Assembly: GCF_988243305.1 (NCBI RefSeq)
Contig: NZ_OZ547136.1
Length of the DNA: 64,000 nt
Strand: one strand, 5' to 3'
This document shows, in pieces, positions 2,914-31,795 of this stretch. A program made the position numbers and the translations under genes. How positions within the stretch are numbered: position 1 is the first letter of the stretch; every line of letters begins with the position of its first letter. Below the pieces are notes generated by a model. The model saw only the letters and a program-made list of their open reading frames with translations. It had not been told where the DNA came from and ran no database searches.

Positions 2914-2970
2914 CCCACTACAACCATAAATTCTGGCATGACATTTTGTTTGAAAAGCAATAAGTGAGTA

Positions 2971-16329: not shown

Positions 16330-16466
16330 ATGGCAAAGCCGATCATCACGCTCAATGGCCTAAAAATCGTCATTATGTTGGGAATGCTGGTCATTATTCT
16401 CTGCGGTATCCGTTTTGCCGCCGAGATCATCGTGCCGTTTATTCTCGCATTATTTATTGCTGTTAT
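16330..16466 (+). pseudogene. tqsA: 5' fragment of the AI-2 exporter gene tqsA (first ~46 codons), interrupted by the island; the frame runs on into island sequence and stops at 16492-16494
   Basis: Encodes [45 protein letters not shown], then diverges; the rest of the gene resumes at 31796. Confidence 0.8.
16458..16466. repeat. Left copy of 9-bp direct repeat TGCTGTTAT at the island/host junction (putative att core or target duplication)
   Basis: Identical 9-mer at 31787-31795; both lie exactly where tqsA reading frame is broken and resumed. Confidence 0.65.
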
Positions 16467-17231
16467 ATATAACTTATTTCACATAACACGTTGATTTAAT
16501 TAAATAATTTTCACCGCAAAAAGTGCCAAAAATCGCAAAATGACTACACCAGTGACTACACCGTTCGGTGCACTGTATGAAACAACGTGGAACAAATAGA
16601 CACAAGAAATATACAGGCGGATCATCTTTCCAGGGGGAAGCGCACCAATTCATGAGGGGCGTTAATGTCGATATGGGGATCCCCACCTACCGGAATTTTT
16701 TTCCGGTTAAACGTTAATCAGGCTGGTGGGCTTTACCTGTTCGGTAGGTGTTATGATTATCGTAATACCTTTCCCCCAATGGGGTAAAAGCATCAACCGT
16801 AACGAAAGTCGTTATGGTTGCCACTGATACCCCAAATTTGGGTATCACGAGTAAGACCCAAAATCTGGGTGTTACTCTTACTACCCAAACTACGGGTAGT
16901 TTCCGTAGTTTCATGGTCGAGTTGCAGATCTGCAACTCCCCCATTAACCACAGGCGAATTTCCGCCTTCGGTCATTCCTTAATCATCTGCGTAATCATAA
17001 TGATTATTCAGCAAGCGCAATTTTGCACTTTGCTTAAAGTTCAGCGAGTTACCGCGCCGACTTCCTCAAATTGAGGTTTCCGAAAATATCAGCGGGTTAG
17101 CGATTAAGCTGATCATTAATTAAACTGCGAAAATTTCGTAGTTTGTGACTGTCTTTCAGGCAGCTTGTTAACAGTCCTCAGAAGCGAGGGATGTAGCCAC
17201 CCATTTTTGGTCCGTCGGGAATATCAACCAG

Positions 17232-17513
17232 TTACCGCCGCAACCGCTCCGGCTTCTTCCAGTGGTACGTTATTTTCTCCTTCTCCCGATACATCTCCAC
17301 GCGGCGACGGTAGGCCAGCAACTCAAGAACTCTGGTTCGTATGTTGCGCATATCCACGCCATTAAGTTCTATACCATCACGGCGCATCACCTCAGCAACA
17401 ACACGCGCATAGTTTTCGGCTGTCACGCTGTCCGGCTGCGTGGCCTGTTCGTCAGCCTGCTGGCTGATTCCGGCAACGCGGCGGATTAATCCCGTTATTT
17501 CGGCTTCTGTCAT
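17232..17513 (-). CDS. Hypothetical protein, last gene of the packaging operon
   Basis: 93-aa ORF immediately downstream of the large terminase on the same strand; no recognisable motif. Confidence 0.4.
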   Translation of the reverse strand: MTEAEITGLIRRVAGISQQADEQATQPDSVTAENYARVVAEVMRRDGIELNGVDMRNIRTRVLELLAYRRRVEMYREKEKITYHWKKPERLRR

Positions 17514-17526
17514 GCTGCTGACCTCA

Positions 17527-19188
17527 TTACACCCCGCTAAATTCTTCCAGTTTCTGGCGGTGGCTGTCGCTTATATCAAAAGCAAAATCCTCATGCTCTG
17601 CCTGGAATGTACCAAACGCCATCAGCGCCGCCACGCTCGGGTCTATCTTGTTCGGTGATTTTTTCTTGTTCGGCTTGATATTGGCGTTCGCGTCACTCTG
17701 CATCACGACGTTACTCATCGACCAGGACAACACCGGATCGCCACGATGCACAATCACCCTGCGGTTAACAAAAACTTCGAACGATTTCGCCGCCGGACTG
17801 AATCTGAGGTAGGTTTGCGGGAACGGCTCCACCTCAAAACCTGCCCCCTGTAATTGCGTTCTGAGATGCGTGGCGTTCCACGTATCAAAGCCCACCAGCC
17901 TGATATTAAATTTCTCCGCGTCCTGCATGATGTCATCTCTGATCCGGTCGTAATCAATGCAGTCGCCAGGCGTTGTGCGTATCCAGCCTGCTTTAGCCCA
18001 CTGACGATAGATGGCGCGGTTTTTATTGGCGGGGTTCTGTAGCTGAAATTCCGGCAGATAGTGACGGGAAACCAGCATAATGGTTTTACCGACCGGAAAG
18101 GCATAGCACACGCTGGAAATATCGCTGGTTGATGATAAGTCCAGCCCCGCGTAACACTCCTGGCCGTGTAAATCTTCCTCCGTGAACGTTCCGGCACACT
18201 CAGCCCATGCGCCGTTACCCATCCACGGGGTAGCCCCCAGGCACCAGATATTAAATCGCTTTGTCATCATCTCCACCCACTGCGACGGAATACCCCGCGC
18301 TTTCTGGATGGTTGAGGCCAGTTTTTCACGATCCACGGAAACATCAATATTAGGGTTCGCCTTTATCCACATCGCCGGATCATCAACCTCGTTTTCGTCG
18401 TCCAGTTCGTAAATCAGTACAAAAATTGAATCGTTGACCTCTTCGCCGTCCAGGATCTGGCAGCAATAATCATAGTGCTGCTTACAGGCTGAAACGACGT
18501 TACTGCCTGATGTGGTAATAGCAAATAACAGCCCTTCGGGACGTGCGCCCATCCCCAGCTCAAGCGCGGAATAAACGCCGTTATCGGGGTGCAAGTGGTA
18601 TTCGTCCACGATGGAAAGGCTGGGGTTTGTTCCCTCGATGGTTGCCGCTTTTGCTGCCAGCGGCTTTAACAGGCTGTTGCTTTTCGGGTGTATCACCTTA
18701 TGCGCCTGAATATTCACCCGCCTGCGTAACGGTCGGGATAAAAGGCACATCTGACGCGCATCATCAAAGACGATCCGCGCCTGGTCACGGCTCACCGCTG
18801 CGGTGTAAATATCCTGCTGACCGTTCTCCATAATCAGAAACCAGTTAGCCAGAATCGCGGCGGTCGTGGATTTCGCATTTTTGCGCGGCACTTCGATAAA
18901 GGCGCTCGTGTATTTGCGCCGTCCGGTGGCCTTAACCTTAAAGCCGAGGATGCACGCAAAGGCGAACTGCTGCCACGGCTCCAGCTCAATGGGTCTGCCA
19001 CGCATCGGCCCTTTTACGTGCGGGCACACCCTGGAAAAGGCAATAAACCGCTCCACAACCTCACGATCGAACGTGTAAAGGGGGCTTTCAAGGTCCGAAA
19101 AGTACCGTTTAACGGCCTGTTTCAGCCGTTTACAGGCCGGAATTTTGCCCGTTTTTACGTCTTCTGCGTACTTATTCCAGGCGGTCAA
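17527..19188 (-). CDS. Phage terminase large subunit
   Basis: 553-aa ORF with ATPase N-terminal region and nuclease C-terminal region typical of Terminase_1-type TerL; follows TerS. Confidence 0.85.
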   Translation of the reverse strand: MTAWNKYAEDVKTGKIPACKRLKQAVKRYFSDLESPLYTFDREVVERFIAFSRVCPHVKGPMRGRPIELEPWQQFAFACILGFKVKATGRRKYTSAFIEVPRKNAKSTTAAILANWFLIMENGQQDIYTAAVSRDQARIVFDDARQMCLLSRPLRRRVNIQAHKVIHPKSNSLLKPLAAKAATIEGTNPSLSIVDEYHLHPDNGVYSALELGMGARPEGLLFAITTSGSNVVSACKQHYDYCCQILDGEEVNDSIFVLIYELDDENEVDDPAMWIKANPNIDVSVDREKLASTIQKARGIPSQWVEMMTKRFNIWCLGATPWMGNGAWAECAGTFTEEDLHGQECYAGLDLSSTSDISSVCYAFPVGKTIMLVSRHYLPEFQLQNPANKNRAIYRQWAKAGWIRTTPGDCIDYDRIRDDIMQDAEKFNIRLVGFDTWNATHLRTQLQGAGFEVEPFPQTYLRFSPAAKSFEVFVNRRVIVHRGDPVLSWSMSNVVMQSDANANIKPNKKKSPNKIDPSVAALMAFGTFQAEHEDFAFDISDSHRQKLEEFSGV

Positions 19189-19528
19189 GCTCGTCCTCTT
19201 CTTCTGTTTCCGGTGGATTTTTACGGCGGCTTATCGGGTCAAAACCGAGCAAGGAGGCCATTTTTATCATCACCCTTTCAGCGTCGGATTTTGCGCTTAA
19301 TGCGGGGTTTCTGCTCTCGCCGCCCTGACTGTTAACAATGCTGAACCCGCGCGCCGCAAGGTCTGCAACGGCTTTCCGGTAAATGGAGTAGTTGACACAA
19401 TACAGTTCCAGATTGCTCCAGTCGGCGGGGGTCAGGTCTCCCCGTTCCGCAAGCTGCCGCGATTTTTCCCGCCACTGCTTCACGGCGATGTCATCCAGGT
19501 AGGCGGGGGCTTTCGGTGGTCTTGCCAT
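19172..19528 (-). CDS. Phage terminase small subunit (P27-family-like)
   Basis: 118-aa ORF with acidic C-terminus, immediately upstream of and overlapping TerL; family assignment from recall. Confidence 0.7.
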   Translation of the reverse strand: MARPPKAPAYLDDIAVKQWREKSRQLAERGDLTPADWSNLELYCVNYSIYRKAVADLAARGFSIVNSQGGESRNPALSAKSDAERVMIKMASLLGFDPISRRKNPPETEEEDELDRLE

Positions 19529-19817
19529 ACTTATTTTTTCGCCAGATTATTTTTCAAAAAATTCCCGTGCATAAAAATTTGAGGAGGCGTTCGGTGCCCG
19601 GCGGGGTCGGGTTTGTCCTGAAAACGCCCCCCACCCCGTCATACAGCCTCATCAGCGATTGCGGAAACATTCCATAACCTCGCGGTCACGGTCGGTTAAT
19701 CGCTTCGCTGTGATGCGTTCTGCGCGTCCTGACGCTTTATCTTTATGCCCTGTTTCCTGTGTCTTCCATGCGTCACGCTGCCTTATAAGTCCACGGATAA
19801 GGCGGTTTTGTTCCCGC
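19529..19817. other. Candidate cos/packaging-site region between HNH endonuclease and TerS
   Basis: 289-bp intergenic gap with G+C-rich tracts (GGTGCCCGGCGGGGTCGGG, CGCCCCCCACCCCG); location inferred by analogy with HK97-type HNH-dependent cos phages. Confidence 0.3.
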
Positions 19818-20258
19818 TCATTCATCAGCGTCATACATCCAGTTATTGCGGTTAGCGGACCGTTCTTCCTCTTCACGAAATCCACCTGCGGCACGCTTGC
19901 TTTTTGTTGCCGGATCAAGCCATTTCGTTTTCTGGTTATGACACGCCTGACACAATGGCTGATGGTTCCATTCGGGCCAGAAGAGAACATCATCGCCGCC
20001 ATCGATGGGGATAATGTGATCCACCACCACGGCGGGCGTATATATCCCCTTCTCAAGGCATCGCACGCATAACGGGTTTTTACTCAGATACATGGCGCGG
20101 TATTTGTCCCACTGTCTGGAGTACCCACGCGCGCGGCGGTGTCCTCGTCTGGCATCCTCTGCACGCCATGCCGCCCGCCTGTGCTCCTCACACTTACCGG
20201 ACTTAACGCGCCTGTTACAGCCTGGTTCTGTACATCGTCTTAATGGTTGCCACGGCAT
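19818..20258 (-). CDS. HNH endonuclease
   Basis: Cys-rich N-terminus (CTEPGCNRR...CEEH) and VVDHIIP...NHQPLCQACHNQKT HNH motif; sits immediately upstream of terS. Confidence 0.8.
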   Translation of the reverse strand: MPWQPLRRCTEPGCNRRVKSGKCEEHRRAAWRAEDARRGHRRARGYSRQWDKYRAMYLSKNPLCVRCLEKGIYTPAVVVDHIIPIDGGDDVLFWPEWNHQPLCQACHNQKTKWLDPATKSKRAAGGFREEEERSANRNNWMYDADE

Positions 20259-20554
20259 CAGTACACCCCCACATCACGGTAAGCCGTCCAGAGTGCGCCT
20301 ATCGTCATGGGTACGCGCGTTTTTGCGTTATCCGCGACAATCTGGCGATTTTCATACAGGTGAGCGATAAACATCATGCAGCCAATCTTTATGGCTGGCG
20401 TGAACTCCAGCCCGTCATCAAAGCGCCTGCCTATGTGTATCTGGCACGCCTCAAGCGATGCGGCAATGTATCCGCTGATTAACTGGTCTTCATCGTCGCC
20501 ATCGATGCGGCAATGGAGTTTCACTTCTTCCAGGGTGATAAGTTCTTCTGTCAT
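20258..20554 (-). CDS. Phage gp6-like head-tail connector protein
   Basis: 98-aa ORF MTEELITLEEVKLHCRIDGDDEDQLISGYIAAS... resembling the gp6-like connector family; within the head module. Confidence 0.6.
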   Translation of the reverse strand: MTEELITLEEVKLHCRIDGDDEDQLISGYIAASLEACQIHIGRRFDDGLEFTPAIKIGCMMFIAHLYENRQIVADNAKTRVPMTIGALWTAYRDVGVY

Positions 20555-20889
20555 TTTTCCGCGCCCTCACGACAAAGAATTTCAAGGCGTGTCCTGGCGG
20601 CATCCGGCAACGGTTGCCCGATGATATTCAGTACACGCCCCGCCAGCGGCCCTGTATTGACCTTTATCCGACTGGTGGCGTTGATGTCCTTCCGGTAGCG
20701 TATCCATATCCTTACCGTTCCAGTCGCCAGCTCTGCACCTGATGAAATGGCCTCCTTGCTGCTGATCATGTTCACGCTTGCCCAGAGTGTGTGACCGTCC
20801 ACCCACGTTTCGAGTATTTCGCCGGTTATATCCCTGGTCTGTTTCAGGGTCTGAATCGTTACCCTGTCACGCAGTCGCCCTATGTTCAT
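20551..20889 (-). CDS. Phage head closure / head-tail joining protein
   Basis: Start taken at MNIGRLRDRVTIQ, overlapping the portal stop by 4 nt; resembles head-tail joining family. Confidence 0.6.
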   Translation of the reverse strand: MNIGRLRDRVTIQTLKQTRDITGEILETWVDGHTLWASVNMISSKEAISSGAELATGTVRIWIRYRKDINATSRIKVNTGPLAGRVLNIIGQPLPDAARTRLEILCREGAEK

Positions 20890-22097
20890 TCCGGTTTTTC
20901 TCCCTCGCTGATTTTTACTTCCTGTTTCCATGCCTGGCTGAACTCATCACCACCATCACGCGGGGACAGCCCTTCACGTTCGCGGGCTTCGTTCGGGCAC
21001 ATAACGCCGGATTTGATGCCGCGTTCATAGGTGGCAAAGCGTTCGCCAGGTGTGGCCCGTAACAGGTCCGCGCTGTCAAACTCCACCTGATACCGGATAC
21101 CAGGTACAGGCGAGGCCACCAGCAGGGCGTTTTTTATCTGCTGCTCAAAGTTCGCCAGCCACGGGCGCATCGTCATGGTGAGAAATGCGCGGCTTGCCTC
21201 GCTGAAGTTGCTGTAGGTGCTGTTGCTGTATTCCTGCAAAAAAATCGGCGAGACGTTGAACATTCGGGCGATGTCTTCAATGGTGAAGCGACGGGAGGCC
21301 AGCCATTCGGCATCCTGATTACTCATGCCCAGCTGCTGATAGCTCATCCCCCCTTCAAGGATGGGCGTTTTTCCGGCGTTTCTGGCCCCTTTGTAGCGTT
21401 CCAGTGCGGCTAATGCCTGTTTGCCCTTCACGCCGTCCAGCCATTCGCCTGACGTGATAACCCCTGCCGCCATCATGCCATCACGCATCACGCTCGCGCC
21501 GTGGCGTTGTTGGGCCAGCCCAAGCCCCAGCGATTCGCGGCAGATGGTTACAGGTGAGCGCCCCATAAAACCGTCATCCGTGGAGTAACGAAGGTGGAGA
21601 ACCTCCCACGGTAAATAGTTGCGGGTGTTTCCGGTGTAGGCGTCAGTGATGCAGTAGCGCCAGTTATGATCACCTGTCTGCTCCACGTTCACCGACTGCG
21701 GCGGGTAAGGATGTAAAGCCACCGGAAAACCATCACGCCCCCACTGAATCACCGCATAAGCATTACCGTTTAACAGGCAGTGGCGGATCATCATTCGCTT
21801 AAACTGGTAGGGAGTCTGCCACGCGTTCGGGCGCTCGTTGAGGATGTGATCGACCGGATGAGAATCAAGCCACTCGCGGGCCTCCTTCCCCTTCTCATTG
21901 CGTACCAGGTACAGGTAACACGGCATGGTAGCCACCGCCTCAGAGATGACCGTCACGGCGTTCATGACGGCGGGCAGTGATTCCGCTGTCCCCGATGATA
22001 CGTACTCACCCGCCCCCGTGTTCGATGTGCCAGCCAGCGCCATAAACTCATCAAGCGTCATGCTGCGCTGCTCTTTTTTTCTTCTGAAAGGCCACAT
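20886..22097 (-). CDS. Phage portal protein (HK97 family)
   Basis: 403-aa ORF immediately downstream of the prohead protease; composition and size typical of HK97-type portals. Confidence 0.8.
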   Translation of the reverse strand: MWPFRRKKEQRSMTLDEFMALAGTSNTGAGEYVSSGTAESLPAVMNAVTVISEAVATMPCYLYLVRNEKGKEAREWLDSHPVDHILNERPNAWQTPYQFKRMMIRHCLLNGNAYAVIQWGRDGFPVALHPYPPQSVNVEQTGDHNWRYCITDAYTGNTRNYLPWEVLHLRYSTDDGFMGRSPVTICRESLGLGLAQQRHGASVMRDGMMAAGVITSGEWLDGVKGKQALAALERYKGARNAGKTPILEGGMSYQQLGMSNQDAEWLASRRFTIEDIARMFNVSPIFLQEYSNSTYSNFSEASRAFLTMTMRPWLANFEQQIKNALLVASPVPGIRYQVEFDSADLLRATPGERFATYERGIKSGVMCPNEAREREGLSPRDGGDEFSQAWKQEVKISEGEKPE

Positions 22098-22098
22098 A

Positions 22099-22671
22099 TC
22101 ACACCCCCGCTAAATCCACCCACCAGCGGCGATTATCCGCACGCGGCATTTTTTCGGGGTGCTGCTCATACAGGGAACGGCGGGCCAGCTCCACGCCGGA
22201 ATCGGGGTAAGCCGGTACCGATGTAACGGTAATTTCGTACAGTTCCGCCACCAGCACGGTGCGCACGCATGGATCTGTTGTGGTATCCCATACATCCTTA
22301 CGGGAGCGAAAGCCAAAGCTCATCCCCGAGATGTCCCCACGCTTAACCAGTTCGATAACGTCGCGCCCTGTACTGGTATCCGGTGGGGTCAGTTCAAAGC
22401 GTAACCCTGTTTCGTCCTCTTCCAGTTTCAGCGTGCCGGAACGGGTGCGCCCCAGTAACATGCTGTGGTCATGCTCATACAGGCCGCGAACGTCATTACC
22501 CGCCGCAAGCCACTCAGTAAACGCCCCCCGCTGGAATTTTTCGTAAAACTCCCCCCATAGCAGTTCTGAAAGCTTATCCCAGCGAACAACGTAGCCCGTC
22601 AGCGTACCGGCTCCGCTGGTAGTGATTTCCGATGACCGGATTTCCATACTCTTCATAATTTTTTCACCCAT
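22099..22671 (-). CDS. HK97-family prohead maturation protease
   Basis: 190-aa ORF between major capsid and portal genes; sequence resembles the S78-type prohead protease family. Confidence 0.75.
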   Translation of the reverse strand: MGEKIMKSMEIRSSEITTSGAGTLTGYVVRWDKLSELLWGEFYEKFQRGAFTEWLAAGNDVRGLYEHDHSMLLGRTRSGTLKLEEDETGLRFELTPPDTSTGRDVIELVKRGDISGMSFGFRSRKDVWDTTTDPCVRTVLVAELYEITVTSVPAYPDSGVELARRSLYEQHPEKMPRADNRRWWVDLAGV

Positions 22672-22710
22672 AAAACACTAAAGGGGCTTTTAAGCCCCTT
22701 CTGTATGCTG

Positions 22711-23868
22711 TTAATCGTCGTCCTGTGGCAGTTCCAGAATCTTGATCGCGTTCGAATCCACCACGCCACCGCCTAAATATTTCTGCGTGAAAATTTTGAT
22801 GAAGCCCGGCTCTGTGAGGTTGTCCGGTCTGGTGCGAACACCTGTTTCGTGATCAACAATGTAGTAACCGCGTTTGAAGTCACCCAGGGCAATAACGTTA
22901 TCCGGCATAAACTCCAGATATTCGACCGGAAGGCCCAGTAACGTATCAGGATCACCCGCCTGTAAACGGTCGCGCCAGATGTAATCACCGTTCGCGTTCT
23001 TCACCTTCTGAAGTTTTGCCGCCGTCGTGGAGTTAACCACCCAGACCGCGTTTTTGCGGTATTTTTTACGTAATGCAAATTTCAGGTCGATCAGCGGGTC
23101 CGCAGATGTCCACGCCAGAGATTCGGAAGGTTTAATTACCTGCAACGTACCAAAATCACGCTCTTTGTCGTTCTTCTCTGCACGGGGTACGGATAAAAAA
23201 CCTTTTGCTTTTTTGTCACCGTCGCCCACAACCAGATCGCTTTCTTCGGTTTCCGTGAAGGTGTCGCCAATCTCGCCCGTCAGCCATGAAAGGATGTCCA
23301 CATCGGAAAAATCCACGATTTCCTGTGTGGTGCGCGGGTACGCATAGACCGGATACAGCTTAATGCTCACCTCGTTAATCTGCGGGGTGCTGGTCTGTTC
23401 GCGTGTCTTACCCTCTTCACCGTGGTTAACGGTCGCACCGCCAGCGGAAACAAGCTGCTTAAACTCGTTGCTGCTGATTTTCTTCACGGTACAGATGCGG
23501 CGCATGGTGGACTCATCCGCCAGCATTCGCATGATTTCGGTGTTCAGTTCGGGGATAACGGTATAACCACCATCAGCGGGAACGCCTGTACTTAATGCGC
23601 GGGTTTCACCTGTCAGAATGTAGTTGCGTAGTTCTGCGGGGTCAGTGGTCTGGCTGCTTTTACCTGGCTTGCTGCGCTCTTCGTCTGCAATGGCTTCAAG
23701 GCGGGAAATGTCTTTATCGAGGGATTCAGCTTTAGCGCGTAATTCGTCAAATTTTGCGCCCTCAGCATCGTTAAGACTGCGGTTTTCTTTTTCCGCGTTC
23801 TCCAGCATGTCGCGCATCTGATTTTTAATGGCGGTTTTCTGCTGGCGTAATTCGATTATTCTCGGCAT
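22711..23868 (-). CDS. HK97-fold major capsid protein with N-terminal coiled-coil (scaffold-like delta) domain
   Basis: Start taken at the ATG for MPRIIELRQQKT; the track ORF extends to a TTG at 23913; N-terminal charged coiled-coil followed by a capsid-like body. Confidence 0.8.
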   Translation of the reverse strand: MPRIIELRQQKTAIKNQMRDMLENAEKENRSLNDAEGAKFDELRAKAESLDKDISRLEAIADEERSKPGKSSQTTDPAELRNYILTGETRALSTGVPADGGYTVIPELNTEIMRMLADESTMRRICTVKKISSNEFKQLVSAGGATVNHGEEGKTREQTSTPQINEVSIKLYPVYAYPRTTQEIVDFSDVDILSWLTGEIGDTFTETEESDLVVGDGDKKAKGFLSVPRAEKNDKERDFGTLQVIKPSESLAWTSADPLIDLKFALRKKYRKNAVWVVNSTTAAKLQKVKNANGDYIWRDRLQAGDPDTLLGLPVEYLEFMPDNVIALGDFKRGYYIVDHETGVRTRPDNLTEPGFIKIFTQKYLGGGVVDSNAIKILELPQDDD

Positions 23869-23906
23869 AAAAAAAAGTCCTGGGGTTAAGTAAGGAACTC
23901 CAGGAC
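23869..23906 (-). terminator. Stem-loop plus U8 run immediately abutting the capsid gene start codon
   Basis: Minus strand reads GTCCTGGAGTTCCTTACTTAACCCCAGGAC followed by TTTTTTTT then ATG. Confidence 0.5.
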
Positions 23907-24111
23907 GCGGCAAACACTCAACCGTTTTTCATAAGGAAATCAGCAATCGCACCGATCGTTTTCCCGCCTGGTAATGAATATTGGCGAGCACATTAACAGG
24001 CGGGAAAGTGGCCCCAGCGTCCTGGCACCACGGGCGAGAATAATCATGATTCAGTTCGGGTAAAATATGCCGATCCGCTCAGTGAACAACGTGGAACAAC
24101 CACGAACAAAT

Positions 24112-24149
24112 AATTTACAAAAAATAACAAAAAGCCGGATTGCTCCGGC
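24112..24149 (-). terminator. Rho-independent terminator downstream of the small gene 24170..24394
   Basis: Minus strand GCCGGAGCAATCCGGC hairpin followed by TTTTTGTTATTTTTT. Confidence 0.6.
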
Positions 24150-24169
24150 TGTATGTGCTGTATGGGTGC

Positions 24170-24394
24170 TCAGTCTCTGATCCCTTTCAGAAATTCTATC
24201 AATGCATCTGTCTGTTCAGGATTTACTGCCAGCATTTCACCGGATAGCGCGCAACGAACAAAACCATGATGATCCTTTTCAATCAGTGCGCCCGTCTCCA
24301 GGAATGCGCGGTAATCATTGATGCTCATCGTCTCCATGTTGTCAGCATGGTATTTATCACGCTGTTTTAATATCTCATCAAATTTCATCGGCAT
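24170..24394 (-). CDS. Small hypothetical protein (74 aa) in a terminator-bounded cassette
   Basis: ATG at 24394 preceded by AGAGGAAAAAACA RBS; terminators on both sides. Confidence 0.55.
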   Translation of the reverse strand: MPMKFDEILKQRDKYHADNMETMSINDYRAFLETGALIEKDHHGFVRCALSGEMLAVNPEQTDALIEFLKGIRD

Positions 24395-24488
24395 TGTTTT
24401 TTCCTCTGTTGTGTCTGTTTGTTTCAGATAGTAACTATGCCTGACCGTGACGAAAACCCGGTAATGCGCCATACCGTTTCAACTGGTG

Positions 24489-24512
24489 CAAAAAAAGCCG
24501 GATTTCTCCGGC
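24489..24512 (-). terminator. Rho-independent terminator ending the replication-region operon
   Basis: Minus strand GCCGGAGAAATCCGGC hairpin followed by TTTTTTT. Confidence 0.6.
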
Positions 24513-24563
24513 TGTGTGATTAGCTGTCCTGGTAATTGCGCCATATTTCATCACCAGCACCAT

Positions 24564-24833
24564 CTATCCCCATTTCGGCATAAGTGCGATCGACTGCCTT
24601 TTCAGGTCTCCGTAATTATCCGGTGGCTCCGGTGGCCTCTGTGCCTTCCTGGAACATTCCAGCCGTCGCATCGTGATGTGATGCCGTTCCTTGTCTGTCT
24701 CCACCAGCAGCATGACTTCACCCCATCGCGCCGACGCCCTCCGGTAAAATCCTTTAGCCTCGAGTTCCTCCGCTATGCGGTCATGTACCATCCTCACCCC
24801 CTCAGAACGGAATACCGTCACCGTAAGGGTCAT
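24564..24833 (-). CDS. Hypothetical protein downstream of ssb; start uncertain (24833 or 24791)
   Basis: ORF in track 24564..24911; candidate ATG starts at 24833 (GGGAGG upstream) and 24791 (GTGAGG upstream). Confidence 0.4.
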   Translation of the reverse strand: MTLTVTVFRSEGVRMVHDRIAEELEAKGFYRRASARWGEVMLLVETDKERHHITMRRLECSRKAQRPPEPPDNYGDLKRQSIALMPKWG

Positions 24834-25212
24834 CGCCTCCCGCTGGTGGCTGATTACCCTGTGTGCCTGTGGTTTTGCGTCTGTTCCCGCCAGGACGTGC
24901 CGCACGGGCACTGATTACGCTGTCTGCAATAACCTGCCAGCCCTGCCGCGTTTCTCCGTTCTGTCCGGTCCACTGGCTTACCTGCATCGTGCCGGATACG
25001 CTGGCAACATCGCCTTTTTGATGTTTAGCCAGGAAGTCGGCCTGTTTGCCAAATGCGATGACCGATAACCATAACGTCGCCTGTCCGTCCTGTGCCTGGC
25101 TGCATGGCAAAGATACCGCCATACGCGCCAGCGTCATCGGTGTGCCCTTGCTGGTCTGTTTTACCTGCGGGTCGTCCACCAGCCGCCCGTAAGCGGCTAT
25201 CTGTGCCGTCAT
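24802..25212 (-). CDS. ssb: Single-stranded DNA-binding protein
   Basis: 136-aa ORF with Gly/Gln-rich linker and C-terminal acidic tail ending DDPYGDGIPF, the hallmark SSB C-terminus. Confidence 0.8.
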   Translation of the reverse strand: MTAQIAAYGRLVDDPQVKQTSKGTPMTLARMAVSLPCSQAQDGQATLWLSVIAFGKQADFLAKHQKGDVASVSGTMQVSQWTGQNGETRQGWQVIADSVISARAARPGGNRRKTTGTQGNQPPAGGDDPYGDGIPF

Positions 25213-25490
25213 AATTCCACCTCTCCGGTTTTAACGTTGATGGTTGTTACCTGTTCCGCTTCGGCAATCTCCCGTTCTGTCAGCGTGGCAAAGTTTGCCG
25301 CCGCCGTGGTCATGAATGCGCTTATCAGGTCGGGATGTTCCTTCGCGTATCCTTCCCGCGTGTGGCGGTCTATCGTTCTGATTGCCACCTTTAAAGCGTG
25401 CTCAGTCATGTCTAACGCTTTATATTTTGGCTCTGTTCTGTCTCTGCGTTTTTGGGTCATTTCTCGCAACCTCTCACTTTTTCGCCTCAC
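25209..25490 (-). CDS. Hypothetical basic protein upstream of ssb
   Basis: 93-aa ORF overlapping ssb start by 4 nt; 5' end overlaps the iteron array so true start may be internal. Confidence 0.4.
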   Translation of the reverse strand: MRRKSERLREMTQKRRDRTEPKYKALDMTEHALKVAIRTIDRHTREGYAKEHPDLISAFMTTAAANFATLTEREIAEAEQVTTINVKTGEVEL

Positions 25491-25662
25491 TTTTTCAAGC
25501 GTCTCACTTCGTCGCAGTTGGGATTTTCGGTTTTTCTATGTGTGTGTTTCATAAGTATTTTTTTACCCCTCACTTTTGAGGATGTATACAGGTCGAAAAG
25601 TGAGGGAGAGCGGGCTAATTTTGGCCCTCTTTCTATCCCCCTCGCTTTTGCTCCTCACTTTT
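25470..25662. repeat. Iteron array (CTCACTTTT, about 7 copies including one inverted); putative replication origin
   Basis: Copies at 25473, 25486, 25502 (imperfect), 25569, 25596 (inverted), 25640 (imperfect), 25654; immediately 3' of the replication ATPase gene. Confidence 0.6.
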
Positions 25663-27061
25663 ATAGCGGCGCTACATCATCCCCATCGATACGAATAACC
25701 CCATCTTTTTCCAGCTTGTACAGCCAGCGCCGGAAGTTTTTCATTTCATACCCCAGTTTTTTCATGTCATCACGTAACAGCGGGATCGTGCACTTGTCGC
25801 CGTTCTGTGTGCGTGAACGGATGCACCCCCATAGCGCGGTATGGTTTTCCGTCTTGTTCCCTGCCTCCTCGATGCGCTCCAGTTCAACAGGAGGGCGCGG
25901 ATCATCCACCACTACCAGCGACGTGATTAATTCACCGTCAGCGTCGGTAAAAAGCTCCACCACGCGTAAGTCATATGCGGCTTCTTTGAGTTCCTCCGCG
26001 TCCTTCATTTTGGTGCATGAGATAACCAGCGCTTCGCTTCCTGCGTCCTCCCTGCGTATCCGGTATTCAGCATCCAGCGAAGCACGAAATGCACTGGAAC
26101 CGCGCGCGCCTTTCGTCTCATCCTTGCCGGAATGGTGAACCACCAGCACCGTGGCCCCTGTGCGTCGTTTCAGTTCGTCACAACCACGGATAAACGCCCC
26201 CATATCACGGGAATCATTTTCATCATTCCCACCAAAGCAACGCGCCAGCGTATCCAGAATAATCATGCGTACAGGTTTACCCGTTTCCCGCTCCACCTGA
26301 CGGGCAGCGATAACCATTTCATCAACATCAAGCGGGGCAGCCGGAAAGATGGGGCGGTTTACCAGATACAGATTTTTCACCTGCTCATCGTGCACAACCT
26401 CCCAGGCTTTTACACGACGCGGAACACCTATACCGCCTTCACCAACCACATAGAGAACCGCACCATGTGCAACCCTGCGGCCTCCCCACTGGCGACCAGT
26501 GGCAACATGGCACGCCCACGATCCGGCAAGGAATGATTTATAGGACCCGCTAGCCCCGTATATGCTGCATAGCGATACCGCCGGAATAATCCCCTTAACC
26601 ACGTAATCCAGTTGCGTGTCGTATCCGGTAGATCCAACGCTCATCGGTAGCGTGGTTTTTCGCTGGTGGTTTTTTTCTTCCACCGGCTCTTTCCCGCGCA
26701 CCCGTTCCAGGTATTCGCGCCAGTTCTCCCGCATATGGCTGTGCATCCCTTCGGGGTAATAATTCGCATCAGTTACACCCGCCGCCGCCAGCTTGTGCGC
26801 AATGGCATTAATATTTGATGGCCTGATGTGGCCTGCCTTGTACAGCCGGACACAATAGCGCCCCTCGTCGATGATTCTCAGGTCTGCCAGTTCATCCAGT
26901 TGATCATCAGCCAGCACAACGGGAGGCACATTATCGCCAGCCAGTCGCCCGTCCTGTTCCTGCCACTGTTTCGCATGTGCCCAGGCATCACTACCCGCAA
27001 AAATAATGACTTCGGTCATCTTGTCGTAAGGCTGTTTTTTTAAGTTCGGTGCGCTTTTCAT
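25661..27061 (-). CDS. Replication initiator with RecA-fold ATPase domain (satellite Pri-Rep-like)
   Basis: 466-aa ORF with Walker A-like YGASGSYKS and downstream ILDTL Walker B-like segment. Confidence 0.65.
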   Translation of the reverse strand: MKSAPNLKKQPYDKMTEVIIFAGSDAWAHAKQWQEQDGRLAGDNVPPVVLADDQLDELADLRIIDEGRYCVRLYKAGHIRPSNINAIAHKLAAAGVTDANYYPEGMHSHMRENWREYLERVRGKEPVEEKNHQRKTTLPMSVGSTGYDTQLDYVVKGIIPAVSLCSIYGASGSYKSFLAGSWACHVATGRQWGGRRVAHGAVLYVVGEGGIGVPRRVKAWEVVHDEQVKNLYLVNRPIFPAAPLDVDEMVIAARQVERETGKPVRMIILDTLARCFGGNDENDSRDMGAFIRGCDELKRRTGATVLVVHHSGKDETKGARGSSAFRASLDAEYRIRREDAGSEALVISCTKMKDAEELKEAAYDLRVVELFTDADGELITSLVVVDDPRPPVELERIEEAGNKTENHTALWGCIRSRTQNGDKCTIPLLRDDMKKLGYEMKNFRRWLYKLEKDGVIRIDGDDVAPL

Positions 27062-27357
27062 TTCTTGCCCCTGAATCCGTTAATCATGGTTTTCAGCTTC
27101 TGGATGTTTGCCCGTGCCCTGGCGTTGCTGGTGGGCACGTTATGCGGCGCGGTCTGTACCAGAGAAAAATCACGCCGGAACTGATAAACAGGCATCACGC
27201 AATCATATTCGTAACCTTCACGGCGGTAGGTTACGCGCCGTTCTTCCACGCCCTTAATCATTACCGTGCCGCCGTACTGGTCGCGGTAAATATCACCGCG
27301 CGTAAATTTAGGGTGAGTGTTGCCACTGGCAGTTAAGCCAGAATATTTAAGTTTCAT
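27058..27357 (-). CDS. Hypothetical protein, translationally coupled to the replication gene
   Basis: 99-aa ORF whose stop overlaps the replication ATPase start by 4 nt. Confidence 0.45.
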   Translation of the reverse strand: MKLKYSGLTASGNTHPKFTRGDIYRDQYGGTVMIKGVEERRVTYRREGYEYDCVMPVYQFRRDFSLVQTAPHNVPTSNARARANIQKLKTMINGFRGKK

Positions 27358-27362
27358 TATTT

Positions 27363-27596
27363 TTATTCTCCGGTGTGCTGTTCTTTATATCTGTCGTGCA
27401 ATAGATCTATTTCTTGCAGTTCCATTATTACAGGCTCAAGAAGCGTTATTAATGCCGTGGCAATTCTTGATTTTTGTTTGTCGCGTTCATTGTCGCCAAG
27501 TGTTTCAAGCCATATGCGCAATATTTCCAGCATGTTTTCACTGTGAGAAAGTGCAAGAAATACGCGGTCTATTGTTTCGTGGTAAATATCACGCAT
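27363..27596 (-). CDS. Hypothetical small protein
   Basis: 77-aa ORF tightly packed between neighbouring ORFs on the same strand. Confidence 0.4.
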   Translation of the reverse strand: MRDIYHETIDRVFLALSHSENMLEILRIWLETLGDNERDKQKSRIATALITLLEPVIMELQEIDLLHDRYKEQHTGE

Positions 27597-27597
27597 A

Positions 27598-28034
27598 TTA
27601 ATCCCCGTCCGTCGTTTTTCTTAAAATAACCTCTGTCACGAAATCAGCATAATCGGCGGCGATATTCAGTACATCAAGCCCCGTTGATTTATATTCTCTC
27701 GTGGAAAGTAAGAAAAAAGCCGCTCTAATAAGTTCTGGCATTGACGAAAGCGCATCAGCCGCATCATCAGGAACGCCGGAAAATTCCTGTTTCAGGGAAT
27801 TAAAACGATCATCACGCATAACCCCCCCCCATTTTCACAATCAGCAACAAGAATATTTTTAGCGTCATTCAGCGACCGCGTTGCGATGTATCGGATACAT
27901 TCCAGGGCGAACTGTGTCCGGTCTTTCTGTTCTTCTCCCTGCGCAAGCTCTGCAGTGCATTCAATATCGATAAGCGCGTGCATCAGCGTAGTGAGCGCGG
28001 CGGCTGCTGCGTCCGGTGTGGTTTTATTGCACAT
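27598..28034 (-). pseudogene. Gene split into two frames by a G9 homopolymer tract (27822-27830); frameshifted or phase-variable
   Basis: Upstream part starts at ATG 28034 with AGGAGG RBS and ends 27792; downstream part 27598..27819 begins 3 nt after the tract in the +1 frame. Confidence 0.55.
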
Positions 28035-28314
28035 GGCACACCTCCTGACGAATACGGGCGGCGAATACAGCAACACAACCGGACGGGCAACGGCTACGCG
28101 CTTCGCGTTCCGTCCAGGCGGTTACGTGGATGATTTGAGATTCTCCGGCACTTAGTGCCAGAAAACGCCACACAAAGGCCGTTTGTGTGTGTATAAGGCG
28201 TGGTATATGATTTACGGCAACCATAACGGCTCCTAGTTTACGTTGTTGGTTAGACGCCCCGTATGTGTTCCCAGCACTGCGGGGCGTTGATTTTTGTGTA
28301 ATGGCAAGTACAAT

Positions 28315-28358
28315 GGTAATTACCATGTAGGTATAGTAATGAAGGGTAATTACCATGT
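28315..28358. promoter_or_regulatory. Two copies of 14-bp repeat GGTAATTACCATGT, each containing the perfect palindrome GGTAATTACC; putative operator
   Basis: Copies at 28315-28328 and 28345-28358, 30 bp apart; second copy overlaps the ATG of the small plus-strand gene; region lies between divergent gene sets. Confidence 0.55.
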
Positions 28359-28528
28359 CAACACCATTAGAAAAACGTTCGCCTCCATACCAAATGCGAT
28401 TACCGGAAGACTTCAGAGCGCAGCTAGAAGAAGCAGCTAAGGCCGATGGCGACACATCTTTAGCCACTTGGATTAAACGCGTTCTCCGCAAAGAATTACA
28501 GCAACGCGGCATAGAGCCAAAAGGTTGA
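28355..28528 (+). CDS. Small putative DNA-binding protein (Arc/MetJ-type ribbon-helix-helix-like), 57 aa
   Basis: ATG 28355 to TGA 28526-28528: MSTPLEKRSPPYQMRLPEDFRAQLEEAAKADGDTSLATWIKRVLRKELQQRGIEPKG; one of only two plus-strand genes in the island. Confidence 0.5.
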   Translation: MSTPLEKRSPPYQMRLPEDFRAQLEEAAKADGDTSLATWIKRVLRKELQQRGIEPKG

Positions 28529-28549
28529 ATTTCAGAAGGAGATAAAATA

Positions 28550-28702
28550 ATGAACTGGCTGTTACATACCCTCCCAGGTCGCATTCTCATTGCACTAATT
28601 ATTTTATGGATTTTGTACCAATTCGGTTTTTTCGATTCGCTTTGGAAGCCTGACTGTTCCGTTAACCCTGGCGATGTACTGAAAGGCTGTAAAAATGGCT
28701 GA
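28550..28702 (+). CDS. Small hydrophobic peptide (50 aa), predicted membrane-associated
   Basis: AGGAG RBS 8 nt upstream of ATG 28550; MNWLLHTLPGRILIALIILWILYQFGFF... single hydrophobic segment. Confidence 0.45.
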   Translation: MNWLLHTLPGRILIALIILWILYQFGFFDSLWKPDCSVNPGDVLKGCKNG

Positions 28703-29057
28703 TCAGGGTTACTCCCTGTAATGCCTTTAACTGGCCCTCTTAAAGAGGGTTGGTTATCTTCGCAGCTCTCTACGTTTTTCGTCGGAACCTCTGAACCTAA
28801 GCAGTGTTGATGTTCAGGAGAACCCGAATACTGTTCGTGTTCGTTGCTCGCCAATTCTCGCGTTTCGCGATAATCAAAATGATTCAATGGGTTGAGATGT
28901 CCGTACGTTAAACGTACGCGGTTAATTTGTACATGCGAATTTCGTCGGCTCAAATTCTGCGCAACCCTGCTTGAGTTATGCAAATAGCACGCGGCTAACT
29001 CACAAGGATTTGAGCGCCCCCAAACGGGGGAGCGCAAAATTTTAGGCATAAGACGCA

Positions 29058-29771
29058 TCAGCGAATCTCCAACACTGACGATGAAGTGATCAGGCTGGCG
29101 AACGCATCCATACGGCGGGCAACCTCACGCACCGCATCGCCTGGACTCATGTCATTACGCACCGCCTCATTAAAGGCCGCCTGTTCGATTTTCTGCATCA
29201 CTACCAACAGCCCCAATTGCTGTTCGTCTGCGGTACCGCGTTCACCATCAGACAAACCAGCCACGCGGTTTTCAGCGCGGGCCAGATTGATGTAATGGTG
29301 CCGTTGTGCGCCCAGAGCTTTTAATCTGTCGCGGCTTTCGTGATAGCCAGGCAGGTACTCACGGCGGATAGGTTCTGCGGCGCGGCGCTTAGTGAATGCC
29401 TTCGTAACATCCAGTTTGAACTGGTTAATACGCTCAGGATCACGCCCTCGGGTGATACGCAGCAGATAGTCGAGCTGCGGCTCATTCAGCAGATAACTAA
29501 TCTCAGGACGCCCACGCTTTCGGCCGGATTTTCCCGATTTCAAATCGGTTAATTCCTTGAGTGACTGACGAGGCAGTGATCCCAGCTCGCGCAATCTGCT
29601 CTGGTGCGATTTAATCGTCGCGCTTAAGCTTTCATGTTGTATTCCGGCTCGCTCTGAAATAACGCGGGAATCGATACGCGGCTCCGATTTGTGATTAATT
29701 AAAATATCGCTCTGGCTGGCTTCAGGGCGAACGAATCCCCGCCCACGTTCTGGCGTATATTCAATCTTCAT
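29058..29771 (-). CDS. Hypothetical protein, possible phage-type regulatory protein
   Basis: 237-aa ORF between AlpA and the divergent control region; basic central segment GRKRGRP; no confident family assignment. Confidence 0.4.
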   Translation of the reverse strand: MKIEYTPERGRGFVRPEASQSDILINHKSEPRIDSRVISERAGIQHESLSATIKSHQSRLRELGSLPRQSLKELTDLKSGKSGRKRGRPEISYLLNEPQLDYLLRITRGRDPERINQFKLDVTKAFTKRRAAEPIRREYLPGYHESRDRLKALGAQRHHYINLARAENRVAGLSDGERGTADEQQLGLLVVMQKIEQAAFNEAVRNDMSPGDAVREVARRMDAFASLITSSSVLEIR

Positions 29772-29828
29772 GGTTATAGCTCTGTGTTCAGATGATTGAT
29801 GTGTGGCGGCTGCGTGCCGCCAGCGTGA

Positions 29829-30017
29829 TTAATGAACTGCCTTGCAGCTATCCTTCCAGGCCAGAACCTCGGATAAAGACCAGCCAACGGAACGACCGCC
29901 AAGTTTACGACGTGATGGGAATTGTCCGGCCTTTTCCAGGCGGTAGCGACACGTACGGCTAAGGCCGGTTAGTTTTTCGCATTCTTTTTCACGTATAAAC
30001 CGATCAGTGCTTAACAC
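29829..30017 (-). CDS. alpA: AlpA-family phage transcriptional regulator / excisionase-like HTH protein
   Basis: 62-aa ORF with AlpA-like signature ...LTGLSRTCRYRLEKAGQFPSRRKLGGRSVGW...; adjacent to integrase. Confidence 0.7.
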   Translation of the reverse strand: MLSTDRFIREKECEKLTGLSRTCRYRLEKAGQFPSRRKLGGRSVGWSLSEVLAWKDSCKAVH

Positions 30018-30381
30018 TATTGCCCCCTTTCGTTTCTTAAAGAGTCATCAGGTGTCTTATTGTGTCGTATTGTTCCCGCTAGAGTGATAAATGGCAAATA
30101 CTGAGGATGTATGATTTACAGAAAATGAAACAGTAAGAATAAAATCTTTTAAATTCATGTTAATACAAAGGCATAAAATATTGTTTCATGCCTTTTTTCT
30201 CGCTCTTTAAAGAGTGATTCGCTAGTGTATAAAAAACCAGTAACGCATTAAAAATCAGCTACTTATAAATCCGTACGCTTTTTCGCCTCTTGTTCGTAGT
30301 TGTTCCACATTGTTGCTCATTGTTGCACGTTGTATCTGTTCGCATATACAGTATGCGCATACTGAAAAAACACGAAAAAAA

Positions 30382-31611
30382 TTATTTTCTTCTGGCTACT
30401 GGTAGCGTGGTTACGTTTTCATGTGTTCCCGCCAGTATCCCTAACCGCTCCGTCCACATATCCAGCGCATTGCGTTTAGCATCCAGATAACGGGAATGAT
30501 TATAAACTCGCTGCATTCCTGGCATCTGGTGGCCTGTAAGCTGCTCCACGACATGCGGATCAACGCCTAAATCGTTCAGCATGGTTGTAAAGGTGCGCCG
30601 GATGTCATGCAGTGACCAGTGAGGATGATTAAGCCTCCTGTGCGCTAATCTTCCATACTGCGATACGCTGGCCTCCTGTTTCACTTCCCCCAGCAATAAG
30701 CCCGTGTGCCTGTTCTGCTCCACCAGCTGCGTGACGAACGGCAGGATCGCTTCCGGTATGGGCCGGAATATTGCGACCTTCGTTTTGCTGTGCTCCTTCG
30801 GAACGGTCCATAGCATTTCCGTAAAATCCCACTCCCCGATCTCCGATAACCTCAGTTCTACCGTTCTGGCTCCGAAGACAATCAGGAGGCGGATTAACGC
30901 GACGTAGTAAGGGGAGAATATTTTTTTGTCCAGTGCCTGCAATAATTCGCCAAGTTCTTTGTTACTTAAGACACGTTCGCTTATATCCGGTTTTTTCCCA
31001 ACGTCCGCCACGTTCAGATCGTCCAGAACGTTGCTGATTGCATAGCGCCGCCTACGGCAGAACTTAAGCGCCTGTTTGCACGCCTGTAGCACGAATCCGG
31101 CAGTAACAGGCGTTCGCTTTGCCACCTGGTCAAAACAGGCCAGCCAGTGCCGTAGCTCGCATTTATCCAGCGGCATAGCACCAATCTGCTGTATTACGTG
31201 ATTATTAAGTCGCCTTTTCAGGGCGATATAATCCACGCGGTTTTCCTTTACGTAATACTCAAGCCAGTAGGTGAGCGCATCGCCAACCGTTACGGGCTTT
31301 AACGCTTCCTGTACGGTGTAATTCATCTCATGACGTGGATTTTTCCCCTCAGCCAGCCATGTGCGACACTGTGCGGCTTTTTCCCTGGCTGCTTTCAGGC
31401 TCAGATCAGGATAACTTCCCAGCTTAATGCGTTCGGGTCGTGTCTCCCTTCCCGTTCCGGCCCTGTATGTGAAATACCAGGTCAATTTCCCTGATGTTAA
31501 ATATTTCACGCTCAGGTTTCCGCCATCACTATAAAACGTGTTTTTCTCCGCTGGCTTACCATGAAGTTTCCTTAGCAAGGTATCGCTCAGTTTGTTCATT
31601 GCTCTGCTCAC
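30382..31611 (-). CDS. int: Tyrosine site-specific integrase (P4-type)
   Basis: 409-aa ORF; C-terminal catalytic region with HDIRRTF (H-x-x-R) and a downstream tyrosine; located at the island right end. Confidence 0.85.
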   Translation of the reverse strand: MSRAMNKLSDTLLRKLHGKPAEKNTFYSDGGNLSVKYLTSGKLTWYFTYRAGTGRETRPERIKLGSYPDLSLKAAREKAAQCRTWLAEGKNPRHEMNYTVQEALKPVTVGDALTYWLEYYVKENRVDYIALKRRLNNHVIQQIGAMPLDKCELRHWLACFDQVAKRTPVTAGFVLQACKQALKFCRRRRYAISNVLDDLNVADVGKKPDISERVLSNKELGELLQALDKKIFSPYYVALIRLLIVFGARTVELRLSEIGEWDFTEMLWTVPKEHSKTKVAIFRPIPEAILPFVTQLVEQNRHTGLLLGEVKQEASVSQYGRLAHRRLNHPHWSLHDIRRTFTTMLNDLGVDPHVVEQLTGHQMPGMQRVYNHSRYLDAKRNALDMWTERLGILAGTHENVTTLPVARRK

Positions 31612-31786
31612 GTTTTACCCCCTCTTTACGAAAAAGTGACTACACCAGTGACTACACCGATCGTTGCACAAAGGGCTACAACGTGAAACAAGCTGGAACA
31701 AGGAAAATCACAAATCTGTTGATAATCAAAAACATAATGCACAGCCTGAAACATTATGAAACAGCAAAAAACACTAAATGATAAAA

Positions 31787-31795
31787 TGCTGTTAT
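31787..31795. repeat. Right copy of 9-bp direct repeat TGCTGTTAT at the island/host junction
   Basis: Identical to 16458-16466; the tqsA reading frame resumes here ([11 protein letters not shown]...). Confidence 0.65.

Follow-up and report, generated by a model that had tools for sequence, protein, structure and literature searches.

Introduction

Phage-inducible chromosomal islands of the capsid-forming kind (cf-PICIs) were defined from EcCIEDL933, a 15.4-kb island of E. coli EDL933 that carries int, alpA, rep, capsid, protease, portal and connector genes together with those for an HNH nuclease and the small and large terminases (TerS and TerL), and that has no tail genes (Alqurainy et al., 10.1101/2022.09.08.507074). 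Phages HK106 and HK446 induce EcCIEDL933 in a process that requires alpA, and EDL933's own 17 prophages failed to induce it; mutation of any packaging gene abolished island transfer with phage transfer kept, except that transfer of the "hypothetical gene 1792" mutant was severely impaired, and the island was still transferred by helper capsid mutants but not by helper tail mutants (10.1101/2022.09.08.507074). Here we analyse an island that interrupts tqsA in a 64,000-nucleotide stretch of an E. coli-type chromosome (contig NZ_OZ547136.1, assembly GCF_988243305.1; hereafter the window, whose numbering is used throughout), for which a reading of the raw sequence (the original prediction) had proposed a satellite of this class.

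In all Proteobacterial cf-PICIs the capsid, protease, portal and connector genes are followed by hnh, terS and terL (10.1101/2022.09.08.507074). The EcCIEDL933 capsid is a T=4 shell of 47.5 nm, built of HK97-fold subunits that are cleaved at SxGxxAD (He et al., 10.1101/2025.02.11.637232). The same study reported cohesive cos ends for cf-PICI DNA, described the slot after alpA as a variable region and, using EcCIGN02175 and KpCIDSM30104, showed that tail-less capsids are released and that the adaptor and connector determine which tail is used (10.1101/2025.02.11.637232). By the working definition of that study, members of the class are 10-18 kb long, encode integrase, regulation and replication functions and eight packaging genes, and have no lysis genes and no complete tail module (10.1101/2025.02.11.637232). 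The corresponding SatelliteFinder model comprises 11 core components (Type A) and forbids tails and holins; with this model, 13% of the genomes of Enterobacteriaceae were found to contain Type A cfPICIs (de Sousa et al. 2023, PMC10085698).

Results

The packaging operon

Window 25462-17220 aligns with EcCIEDL933, which lies between roxA and phoQ, at 96.65% nucleotide identity over 8,244 bp, a block that covers the entire packaging module and also takes in the genes for the single-stranded DNA-binding protein (SSB) and PerC and two small genes. The two islands are of one size class (15.3 and 15.4 kb), and their genes have the same order and orientation. Each of the ten module proteins has the length of its counterpart, with identities of 87-100%. 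This comparison bears out the proposal of a cf-PICI, and we consider it very probable (about 0.93) that this is the operon in which an integrated cf-PICI, a close relative of EcCIEDL933 lying in tqsA, encodes its head and packaging functions. The module differs from its EcCIEDL933 counterpart at 145 synonymous vs 44 non-synonymous positions (pN/pS 0.088); since the differences are overwhelmingly synonymous, it is under purifying selection rather than decaying.

All eight cf-PICI packaging genes are present and intact, at 94-100% identity to the functional prototype (Table 1), and capsid, protease and portal each fall within HK97 families above the curated cut-offs. The capsid protein carries an N-terminal delta domain and the cleavage motif STGVPAD at residue 93, and is identical at 384 of 385 positions to PDB 9GYI chain B ("Major head protein"), a near-perfect match that strengthens capsid, portal and terminase assignments already upheld by comparison with hidden Markov models; the portal also matches PDB portal chains. 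Near-identical proteins bear RefSeq names, and RefSeq labels the packaging genes simply as phage proteins. Apart from 9GYI, the solved structures nearest to the capsid in sequence are the Rhodobacter capsulatus gene transfer agent (GTA) capsids 6TB9 and 6TBA (E ~3e-46); HK97 itself is not the nearest.

Nine open reading frames (ORFs) had been listed for this region, and each was found on the minus strand, in its expected place and with its expected function (PHROGs, NCBIfam). The list is amended in two respects: the most likely start of the capsid gene is 23868, giving 385 amino acids (aa) as in EcCIEDL933 and 9GYI, rather than the upstream TTG at 23913, and that of the head-closure gene is 20889 (112 aa); and a 60-aa ORF (19652-19834) had been overlooked. 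This ORF is probably the "hypothetical gene 1792" of EcCIEDL933, if we have matched the numbering correctly. The placement of the head genes before the terminase genes, which had also been pointed out, is the order reported for all Proteobacterial cf-PICIs (10.1101/2022.09.08.507074).

The 123-bp gap between the 60-aa ORF, on the hnh side, and terS differs from that of EcCIEDL933 at a single position, and the adjoining terS differs at 16% of synonymous sites. The linear record of a related 16.5-kb element, vB_KppS-Ant, starts 22 bp before terS and ends within a conserved GGGGTGGGGG..TTTTCAGGAC motif. Its position and conservation suggest that this gap most likely contains the cos site; a search of the island for a lambda-type cosN found none.

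Table 1. Features of the island in window order. Identities are from protein-by-protein comparison with EcCIEDL933 (NZ_CP008957.1 1680154-1695588); NCBIfam scores were judged against curated cut-offs, and every head-module model was matched far above its cut-off.
Feature	Position	Strand	Family match or remark	Identity to EcCIEDL933
Split tqsA	16330-16466 and 31787-32693		parts on either side of island	
att core TGCTGTTAT, far end of island	16458..16466		direct repeat, read from sequence	
Whole island	16467..31795	-	15,329 bp including one 9-bp repeat copy; within tqsA	
Tandem AGTGACTACACC x2	16537..16563 and 31633-31659		direct orientation near both ends; repeat family D2	
AACAA-N5-AACAA sites	16581-16595, 31687-31701		both att arms	
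Cluster of near-perfect palindromes	16821..16943		123 nt	
93-aa ORF, last island gene	17232..17513	-	phrog_1561; helical, highly charged	87.1%
Large terminase TerL, 553 aa	17527..19188	-	phrog_9, 2.5e-178	98.4%
Small terminase TerS, P27 family, 118 aa	19172..19528	-	TIGR01558 sm_term_P27; PHROGs 2.6e-39	100%
Putative cos site	19529..19651		123-bp gap between 60-aa ORF and terS	122/123 nt
60-aa basic protein	19652..19834	-	phrog_3173, 9e-36; between HNH and TerS	100%
HNH endonuclease, 146 aa	19818..20258	-	phrog_144, 1.2e-44	99.3%
Head-tail connector/adaptor Ad1, 98 aa	20258..20554	-	TIGR01560; phrog_40, 8.4e-36	99.0%
Head closure Hc1, SPP1 gp16 type, 112 aa	20551..20889	-	TIGR01563 gp16_SPP1; phrog_25, 6.3e-35	93.8%
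Portal, HK97 family, 403 aa	20886..22097	-	TIGR01537 portal_HK97, 246 bits; PHROGs 6.9e-117	99.3%
Prohead protease, HK97 family, 190 aa	22099..22671	-	TIGR01543 proheadase_HK97, 179 bits; PHROGs head maturation protease 1.9e-67	97.4%
Major capsid, HK97 fold, 385 aa	22711..23868	-	TIGR01554 major_cap_HK97, 295 bits (cut-off 27.5); PHROGs major head protein 1.6e-88	99.7%
AACAA-N5-AACAA repeats	24085..24109		~220 bp upstream of capsid gene	
Terminator-like hairpin	24150-24133		after 74-aa ORF	
74-aa ORF	24170..24394	-	phrog_1957	97%
PerC-family regulator	24564..24791	-	frameshifted; 75 aa instead of 90	
SSB, 136 aa	24802..25212	-	phrog_44, 3.6e-40	99.3%
Three CCCTCACTTTT / AAAAGTGAGGG copies (iterons)	25567..25662		directly downstream of helicase gene	
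RepA-family helicase, replication protein, 466 aa	25661..27061	-	phrog_2850, 1.6e-266; primase/helicase families	
DUF4222 protein, 99 aa	27058..27357	-	phrog_285; RefSeq name	81%
Icd-like protein	28024..28224	-	NF033153, 1.1e-16, residues 295-338 of enclosing 344-aa ORF	95%
Two ATGGTAATTACCAT palindromes	28312..28358		repeat family D12; operator-like	
Arc-like ribbon-helix-helix ORF, 57 aa	28355..28528	+	phrog_228 Arc-like repressor, 1.5e-6	
50-aa ORF	28550-28702	+	one predicted transmembrane helix; just downstream of Arc-like gene	
Rha-family regulator, 237 aa	29058..29771	-	Pfam PF09669, 3.2e-5; variable slot after alpA	
AlpA-type excisionase/activator, 62 aa	29829..30017	-	phrog_2790, 2.5e-17	100%
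Three AACAA-N5-AACAA repeats	30290..30324	-	10-bp phasing; between int and alpA	
Tyrosine integrase Int, 409 aa	30382..31611	-	phrog_1, 7e-72	91.2%

Island boundaries and insertion site

The window is colinear with K-12 MG1655 1,657,583-1,706,425 at ~98.3% identity, and this colinearity is broken twice, by a 15.3-kb insertion and by a ~150-bp difference near window 49,130. The K-12 alignment stops at 16466 and restarts at 31787 with an overlap of 9 bp, and this break, together with the direct repeat of TGCTGTTAT at both ends, sets the island at 16467-31795; the 15.3-kb island of the original prediction is thus reproduced, with a length of 15,329 bp that lies within the range for cf-PICIs. Int is encoded at one end, and K-12 carries the empty site.

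The insertion point follows codon 43 of tqsA (ydgG), the gene of the autoinducer-2 (AI-2) exporter, and RefSeq annotation of sister genomes shows the same split. Because the island end provides no in-frame start for the remainder of the gene, tqsA has most likely lost its function in strains that carry this island. A literature search found no paper that pairs tqsA with a PICI, supplementary tables on the six published cf-PICI attB sites lying outside its reach. The AGTGACTACACC tandems near both ends, of which a tandem-repeat scan places the integrase-end one at 31635-31658, are likely candidates for integrase arm-type binding sites. Elsewhere in the window, ~150 bp of K-12 sequence between ydgA and uidC are missing at 49117-49147.

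All island genes are on the minus strand, except the Arc-like ORF and the adjoining 50-aa ORF. Read along the minus strand, their order is int, alpA, the Rha-family and Icd-like genes, three small ORFs, DUF4222, the RepA-family helicase, a further small ORF, SSB, the PerC-like gene, the 74-aa ORF, the hairpin and the packaging operon.

Tail, lysis and repressor genes

PHROGs searches of every minus-strand ORF and the ten longest plus-strand ORFs returned no tail, holin or endolysin family on either strand, and PADLOC, NCBIfam or Pfam, run on most ORFs left without assignment, gave no tail or lysis match. A hydrophobicity scan that took in every island ORF of 35 aa or longer revealed no credible pair of holin and endolysin; its one credible intergenic membrane ORF (50 aa, 28550-28702, plus strand) has no lysin adjoining it. 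With a fold search added, these results uphold the earlier reading that the island has no tail or lysis genes, as expected of a cf-PICI. Our own annotation places all 11 SatelliteFinder component types in the island and finds none of those that are forbidden.

The fold search concerned the 93-aa ORF, whose AlphaFold model consists of three helices (pLDDT 75). Foldseek comparison of the model with BFVD and PDB gave no match at E < 0.5, and a Pfam search of the protein was also without a match; its family is narrow, with 36 representatives, mostly fragments. We considered and set aside a holin function: 'holin' rows appeared only at E >= 1, and are noise given that the protein is highly charged and without a transmembrane segment.

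The statement that the island has no phage repressor was only partly right. There is no CI/Cro pair in the island, but it does encode an Arc-like repressor candidate with operator-like palindromes and a Rha-family regulator.

Regulation, replication and the variable region

The int-alpA-rep layout of the left half is that of Gram-negative PICIs. A 2-kb int-alpA block, including the alpA upstream region, is 93.5% identical to EcCIEDL933 at the nucleotide level; of the 36 substitutions in Int, 35 lie within the first 260 residues. The islands differ in their att cores (GGACATATTT between roxA and phoQ in EcCIEDL933, TGCTGTTAT in tqsA here) and in replication, where EcCIEDL933 has a DUF927 primase (710 aa) and this island the 466-aa helicase, named 'helicase RepA family protein' by RefSeq. 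The iterons after the helicase gene are a candidate origin of replication, to judge from their position and conservation. The PerC-like gene, 90 aa long in EcCIEDL933, has here a 1-nt deletion in an A-run relative to both EcCIEDL933 and strain 14EC001, which alters the C-terminus.

The region after alpA (28296-29723) has been swapped relative to EcCIEDL933, with Rha-family, Arc-like and 50-aa ORFs here. The Rha-family gene, whose homologues are named "Rha family transcriptional regulator", has only its first 16 aa in common with the EcCIEDL933 gene of the same slot. Homologues ~230 aa long occur widely across Enterobacterales, and near-identical DNA was seen in three complete E. coli genomes only. 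PADLOC detected no defence system in the variable region.

The Arc-like ORF, which also has a weak Pfam Arc match (0.041) and is lacking in EcCIEDL933, may be a resident repressor. The ATGGTAATTACCAT palindromes beside it overlap divergent promoter-like hexamers at 28361-28333 (minus strand) and 28287-28314 (plus strand), and the promoter-like site under them faces the icd-replication genes. Many E. coli PICIs carry the Arc-like segment at 99% identity, with nothing but antisense pseudogenes annotated there by RefSeq. The ~210 bp around the 50-aa ORF (28525-28735) lie outside the blastn matches listed for 5,426 complete E. coli genomes and for plasmids.

The 344-aa ORF that encloses the Icd-like protein (28024-29058) was rejected as a gene: only its last 65 aa, the Icd-like part, match anything, and the Arc-like gene lies antisense within it. 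Its N-terminal 280 aa gave no match, and it is probably an artefact of ORF extension.

Prevalence and relatives

Among the 5,426 complete E. coli genomes, 409 carry at least 80% of the module, and in 52 a single match covers at least 80% of a 16-kb query consisting of the island and both flanks; the one copy opened, that of strain 14EC001, sits in tqsA. No identical copy was found in these genomes. The best matches reach 99.0% identity for the module and 98.2% across 90% of the 16-kb query, and one sister copy has IS1 in the head-closure gene.

Phages are far more distant. In a phage collection, only six records matched at the DNA level, at no more than 71% identity, and most of these are satellite-sized (15-16.5 kb) or fragments. 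The capsid proteins of full-size phages reach ~40% identity at most, compared with the 87-100% that the module proteins share with EcCIEDL933, where cf-PICIs would be expected at 50-90% or more. Only four capsid matches reached 58-65%: two in satellite-sized records, vB_KppS-Ant and Pmp8, one in a fragment of 3.8 kb, and one at the very end of a Klebsiella phage record of 106.5 kb. vB_KppS-Ant ('Escherichia phage', 16.5 kb, LR881103.1) has the gene content of a cf-PICI; its 2.3-kb gene annotated 'tail length tape measure protein' (2036-4333) occupies the accessory slot after terL and may be mis-annotated.

By description, EcCIGN02175 and KpCIDSM30104 belong with the island to one family of one architecture, and have the same variable spots, namely the gene after alpA and the positions before and after the packaging operon. 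Their adaptors and connectors are only 35-40% and 61-63% identical, respectively, to those of the EcCIEDL933 type (10.1101/2025.02.11.637232), and at such low identity a different tail specificity is expected here (HK106, not HK022).

Classical E. coli PICIs (EcCICFT073 type) resemble the island in the int-alpA-Icd-like-DUF4222-RepA/primase left half and, at the far end, in the 93-aa gene with its palindrome cluster. One such PICI, next to tRNA-Pro in strain RM8385, has the RepA, DUF4222 and Icd-like genes and an Arc-like segment that is 99% identical. However, classical PICIs are without portal, connectors and TerL, and redirect the helper's terminase and capsids via lambda-type cos sites and Rpp, whereas the present island has all three and no lambda cosN-like site. 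Bacteriophage HK97 shares with it an HK97-fold capsid with delta domain and protease cleavage, the HK97-family protease and portal, and HNH-dependent cos packaging in which HNH and TerS flank cos. It differs in that the island has no tail, lysis or immunity genes and an inverted capsid-protease-portal order, and in that the HK97 capsid is T=7 and that of the EcCIEDL933 type T=4.

Discussion

The element is one more example of a kind already published and widespread, and its packaging module is essentially published and structurally solved. Several points nevertheless weigh against its assignment as an integrated cf-PICI. This copy is known from sequence alone, and the 64-kb window contains no helper prophage. 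In its replication module and post-alpA region the island departs from the prototype, so that it may also be regulated differently, and an Arc-like repressor candidate is found here and not in EcCIEDL933. The PerC-like gene has a frameshift. Candidates for the cos site, the origin and the AlpA sites were placed by position and conservation, and the absence of tail and lysis genes is bounded by how sensitive profile and fold searches are for small orphan proteins.

Some of these points would fit an island that is intact but silent or immobile in this host, either for want of a compatible helper or because the altered regulatory and replication modules block induction. The lack of a prophage within the window agrees with this, as does the failure of EDL933's 17 prophages to induce EcCIEDL933, and the differing post-alpA region has a repressor-like gene with operators on a promoter that faces the icd-replication genes. 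Yet AlpA is unchanged in every residue and the int-alpA block is well conserved, classical E. coli PICIs that look mobile use the same RepA helicase module, and the island is found at the same site in many unrelated strains, a spread that argues for recent mobility. We regard a silent island as unlikely.

Much less likely still is that the region is a decaying cryptic prophage, a former HK97-like phage left inactive once deletions had removed the genes for tail, lysis and immunity. The region's genes resemble those of phages and are labelled accordingly by RefSeq, the PerC-like frameshift and the IS1 insertion in a sister copy look like decay, and the EDL933 counterpart was originally annotated as cryptic prophage CP-933C. 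Against this, the ten packaging genes are intact, of prototype length and with a pN/pS of 0.088, and the same compact architecture recurs in hundreds of genomes. The left half is of the PICI type (int-alpA-rep) rather than a phage immunity and replication region, the capsids of full-size phages are at most ~40% identical, and the near-identical EcCIEDL933 is experimentally mobile.

That the island is instead a classical PICI or P4-like satellite that remodels a helper capsid, or a GTA-like head module that packages host DNA, is scarcely credible: the former is suggested by the int, alpA, Icd-like, DUF4222 and RepA genes in common with classical PICIs, but the full set of capsid, protease, portal, connector and TerL is absent from classical PICIs and P4 and is what SatelliteFinder uses to separate cfPICI from PICI (PMC10085698), and the latter, suggested by the Rhodobacter GTA capsid as best solved match after 9GYI, sits poorly with an integrase-bounded mobile island that has its own terminase, HNH and conserved cos-like gap.

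As a cf-PICI nearly identical to EcCIEDL933, the island would be expected to pass through the steps established experimentally for that prototype. As shown for EcCIEDL933, an induced helper prophage would turn on the island's alpA, whose product is needed for induction and transfer. Int and AlpA would presumably then cut the island out at the 9-bp TGCTGTTAT cores, and the RepA-type helicase may replicate it from the iterons just downstream of its gene. Capsid assembly should follow the EcCIEDL933 pattern, in which the delta-domain capsid protein is assembled on the portal and cut by the protease at SxGxxAD, giving a T=4 capsid of ~47 nm that holds ~15 kb and excludes a helper genome of ~40 kb. 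The island's TerS, TerL and HNH nuclease, again by analogy with EcCIEDL933, would load this capsid with island DNA, the packaging cut falling most likely at cos in the hnh/terS gap. In cf-PICIs the portal has been shown to be sealed by the Ad1 adaptor and the SPP1 gp16-type closure protein, the DNA-filled heads to be released without tails and to become infectious only after joining phage-made tails, and the choice of tail to be set by adaptor and connector; the same would hold here. Since AlpA, adaptor and closure protein are 100%, 99% and 94% identical to those of EcCIEDL933, HK106/HK446-type helpers and HK106-type siphovirus tails are expected.

By means of tail-less capsids that borrow the tails of unrelated phages, cf-PICIs spread genes across strains and even genera, and recognising one indicates that its host carries a self-spreading mobile element. 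This copy adds no new principle. It splits the AI-2 exporter gene tqsA, it is an example of a capsid module recombining freely with integrase, replication and regulatory cassettes of different kinds, and its satellite class was recognised correctly from a reading of the raw sequence. Any residual novelty lies in side observations on the parts that differ from the prototype, not in the head module.

Among these parts, it is possible, though on balance doubtful, that an Arc-like repressor with twin operators and a terminal module made up of the 93-aa gene and the palindromes represent undescribed satellite biology. If so, the repressor would give Gram-negative PICIs, in current descriptions activated through AlpA, a resident layer of repression, and the palindrome cluster could be a cis-acting site, such as a stabiliser of mRNA 3' ends, a terminator or a binding site of the 93-aa protein. 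The 191 nt that surround the cluster fold at -91 kcal/mol on either strand (z = -9.2). An Rfam search of the whole island, the cluster included, gave no match at E up to 0.1. The cluster occurs in 720 of the 5,426 E. coli genomes and in 83 stretches of IMG/VR contigs, some of which have two copies ~434 nt apart, and in the copies inspected it lies just after a 93-aa-like gene at the non-integrase end. This relative position is the same in cf-PICIs and in classical PICIs whose hijacking modules are unrelated. EcCIEDL933 lacks the cluster. The set assembled for covariation analysis (36 unique sequences from IMG/VR and the window) barely varies.

The AACAA-N5-AACAA repeats are a further candidate control feature. 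Nine copies occur in the window against 0.39 expected, seven of them inside the island, at both att arms, between int and alpA and upstream of the capsid gene. EcCIEDL933 carries the motif in these four locations as well, and the 50 kb examined there contain no other copy. To judge from this placement and conservation, the repeats could be binding sites for AlpA or the inducer, and those upstream of the capsid gene are a candidate site for controlling the packaging operon.

At the far end of the island, the sequence GGCG(C/G)GGTAACTnGnTGA forms the 3' end of the 93-aa gene (..PERLRR*; 17225-17250) and is found again downstream at 17035-17060. It recurs about three more times in EcCIEDL933 (44800-45200 of the piece compared), and these repeats may be scars of cassette exchange.

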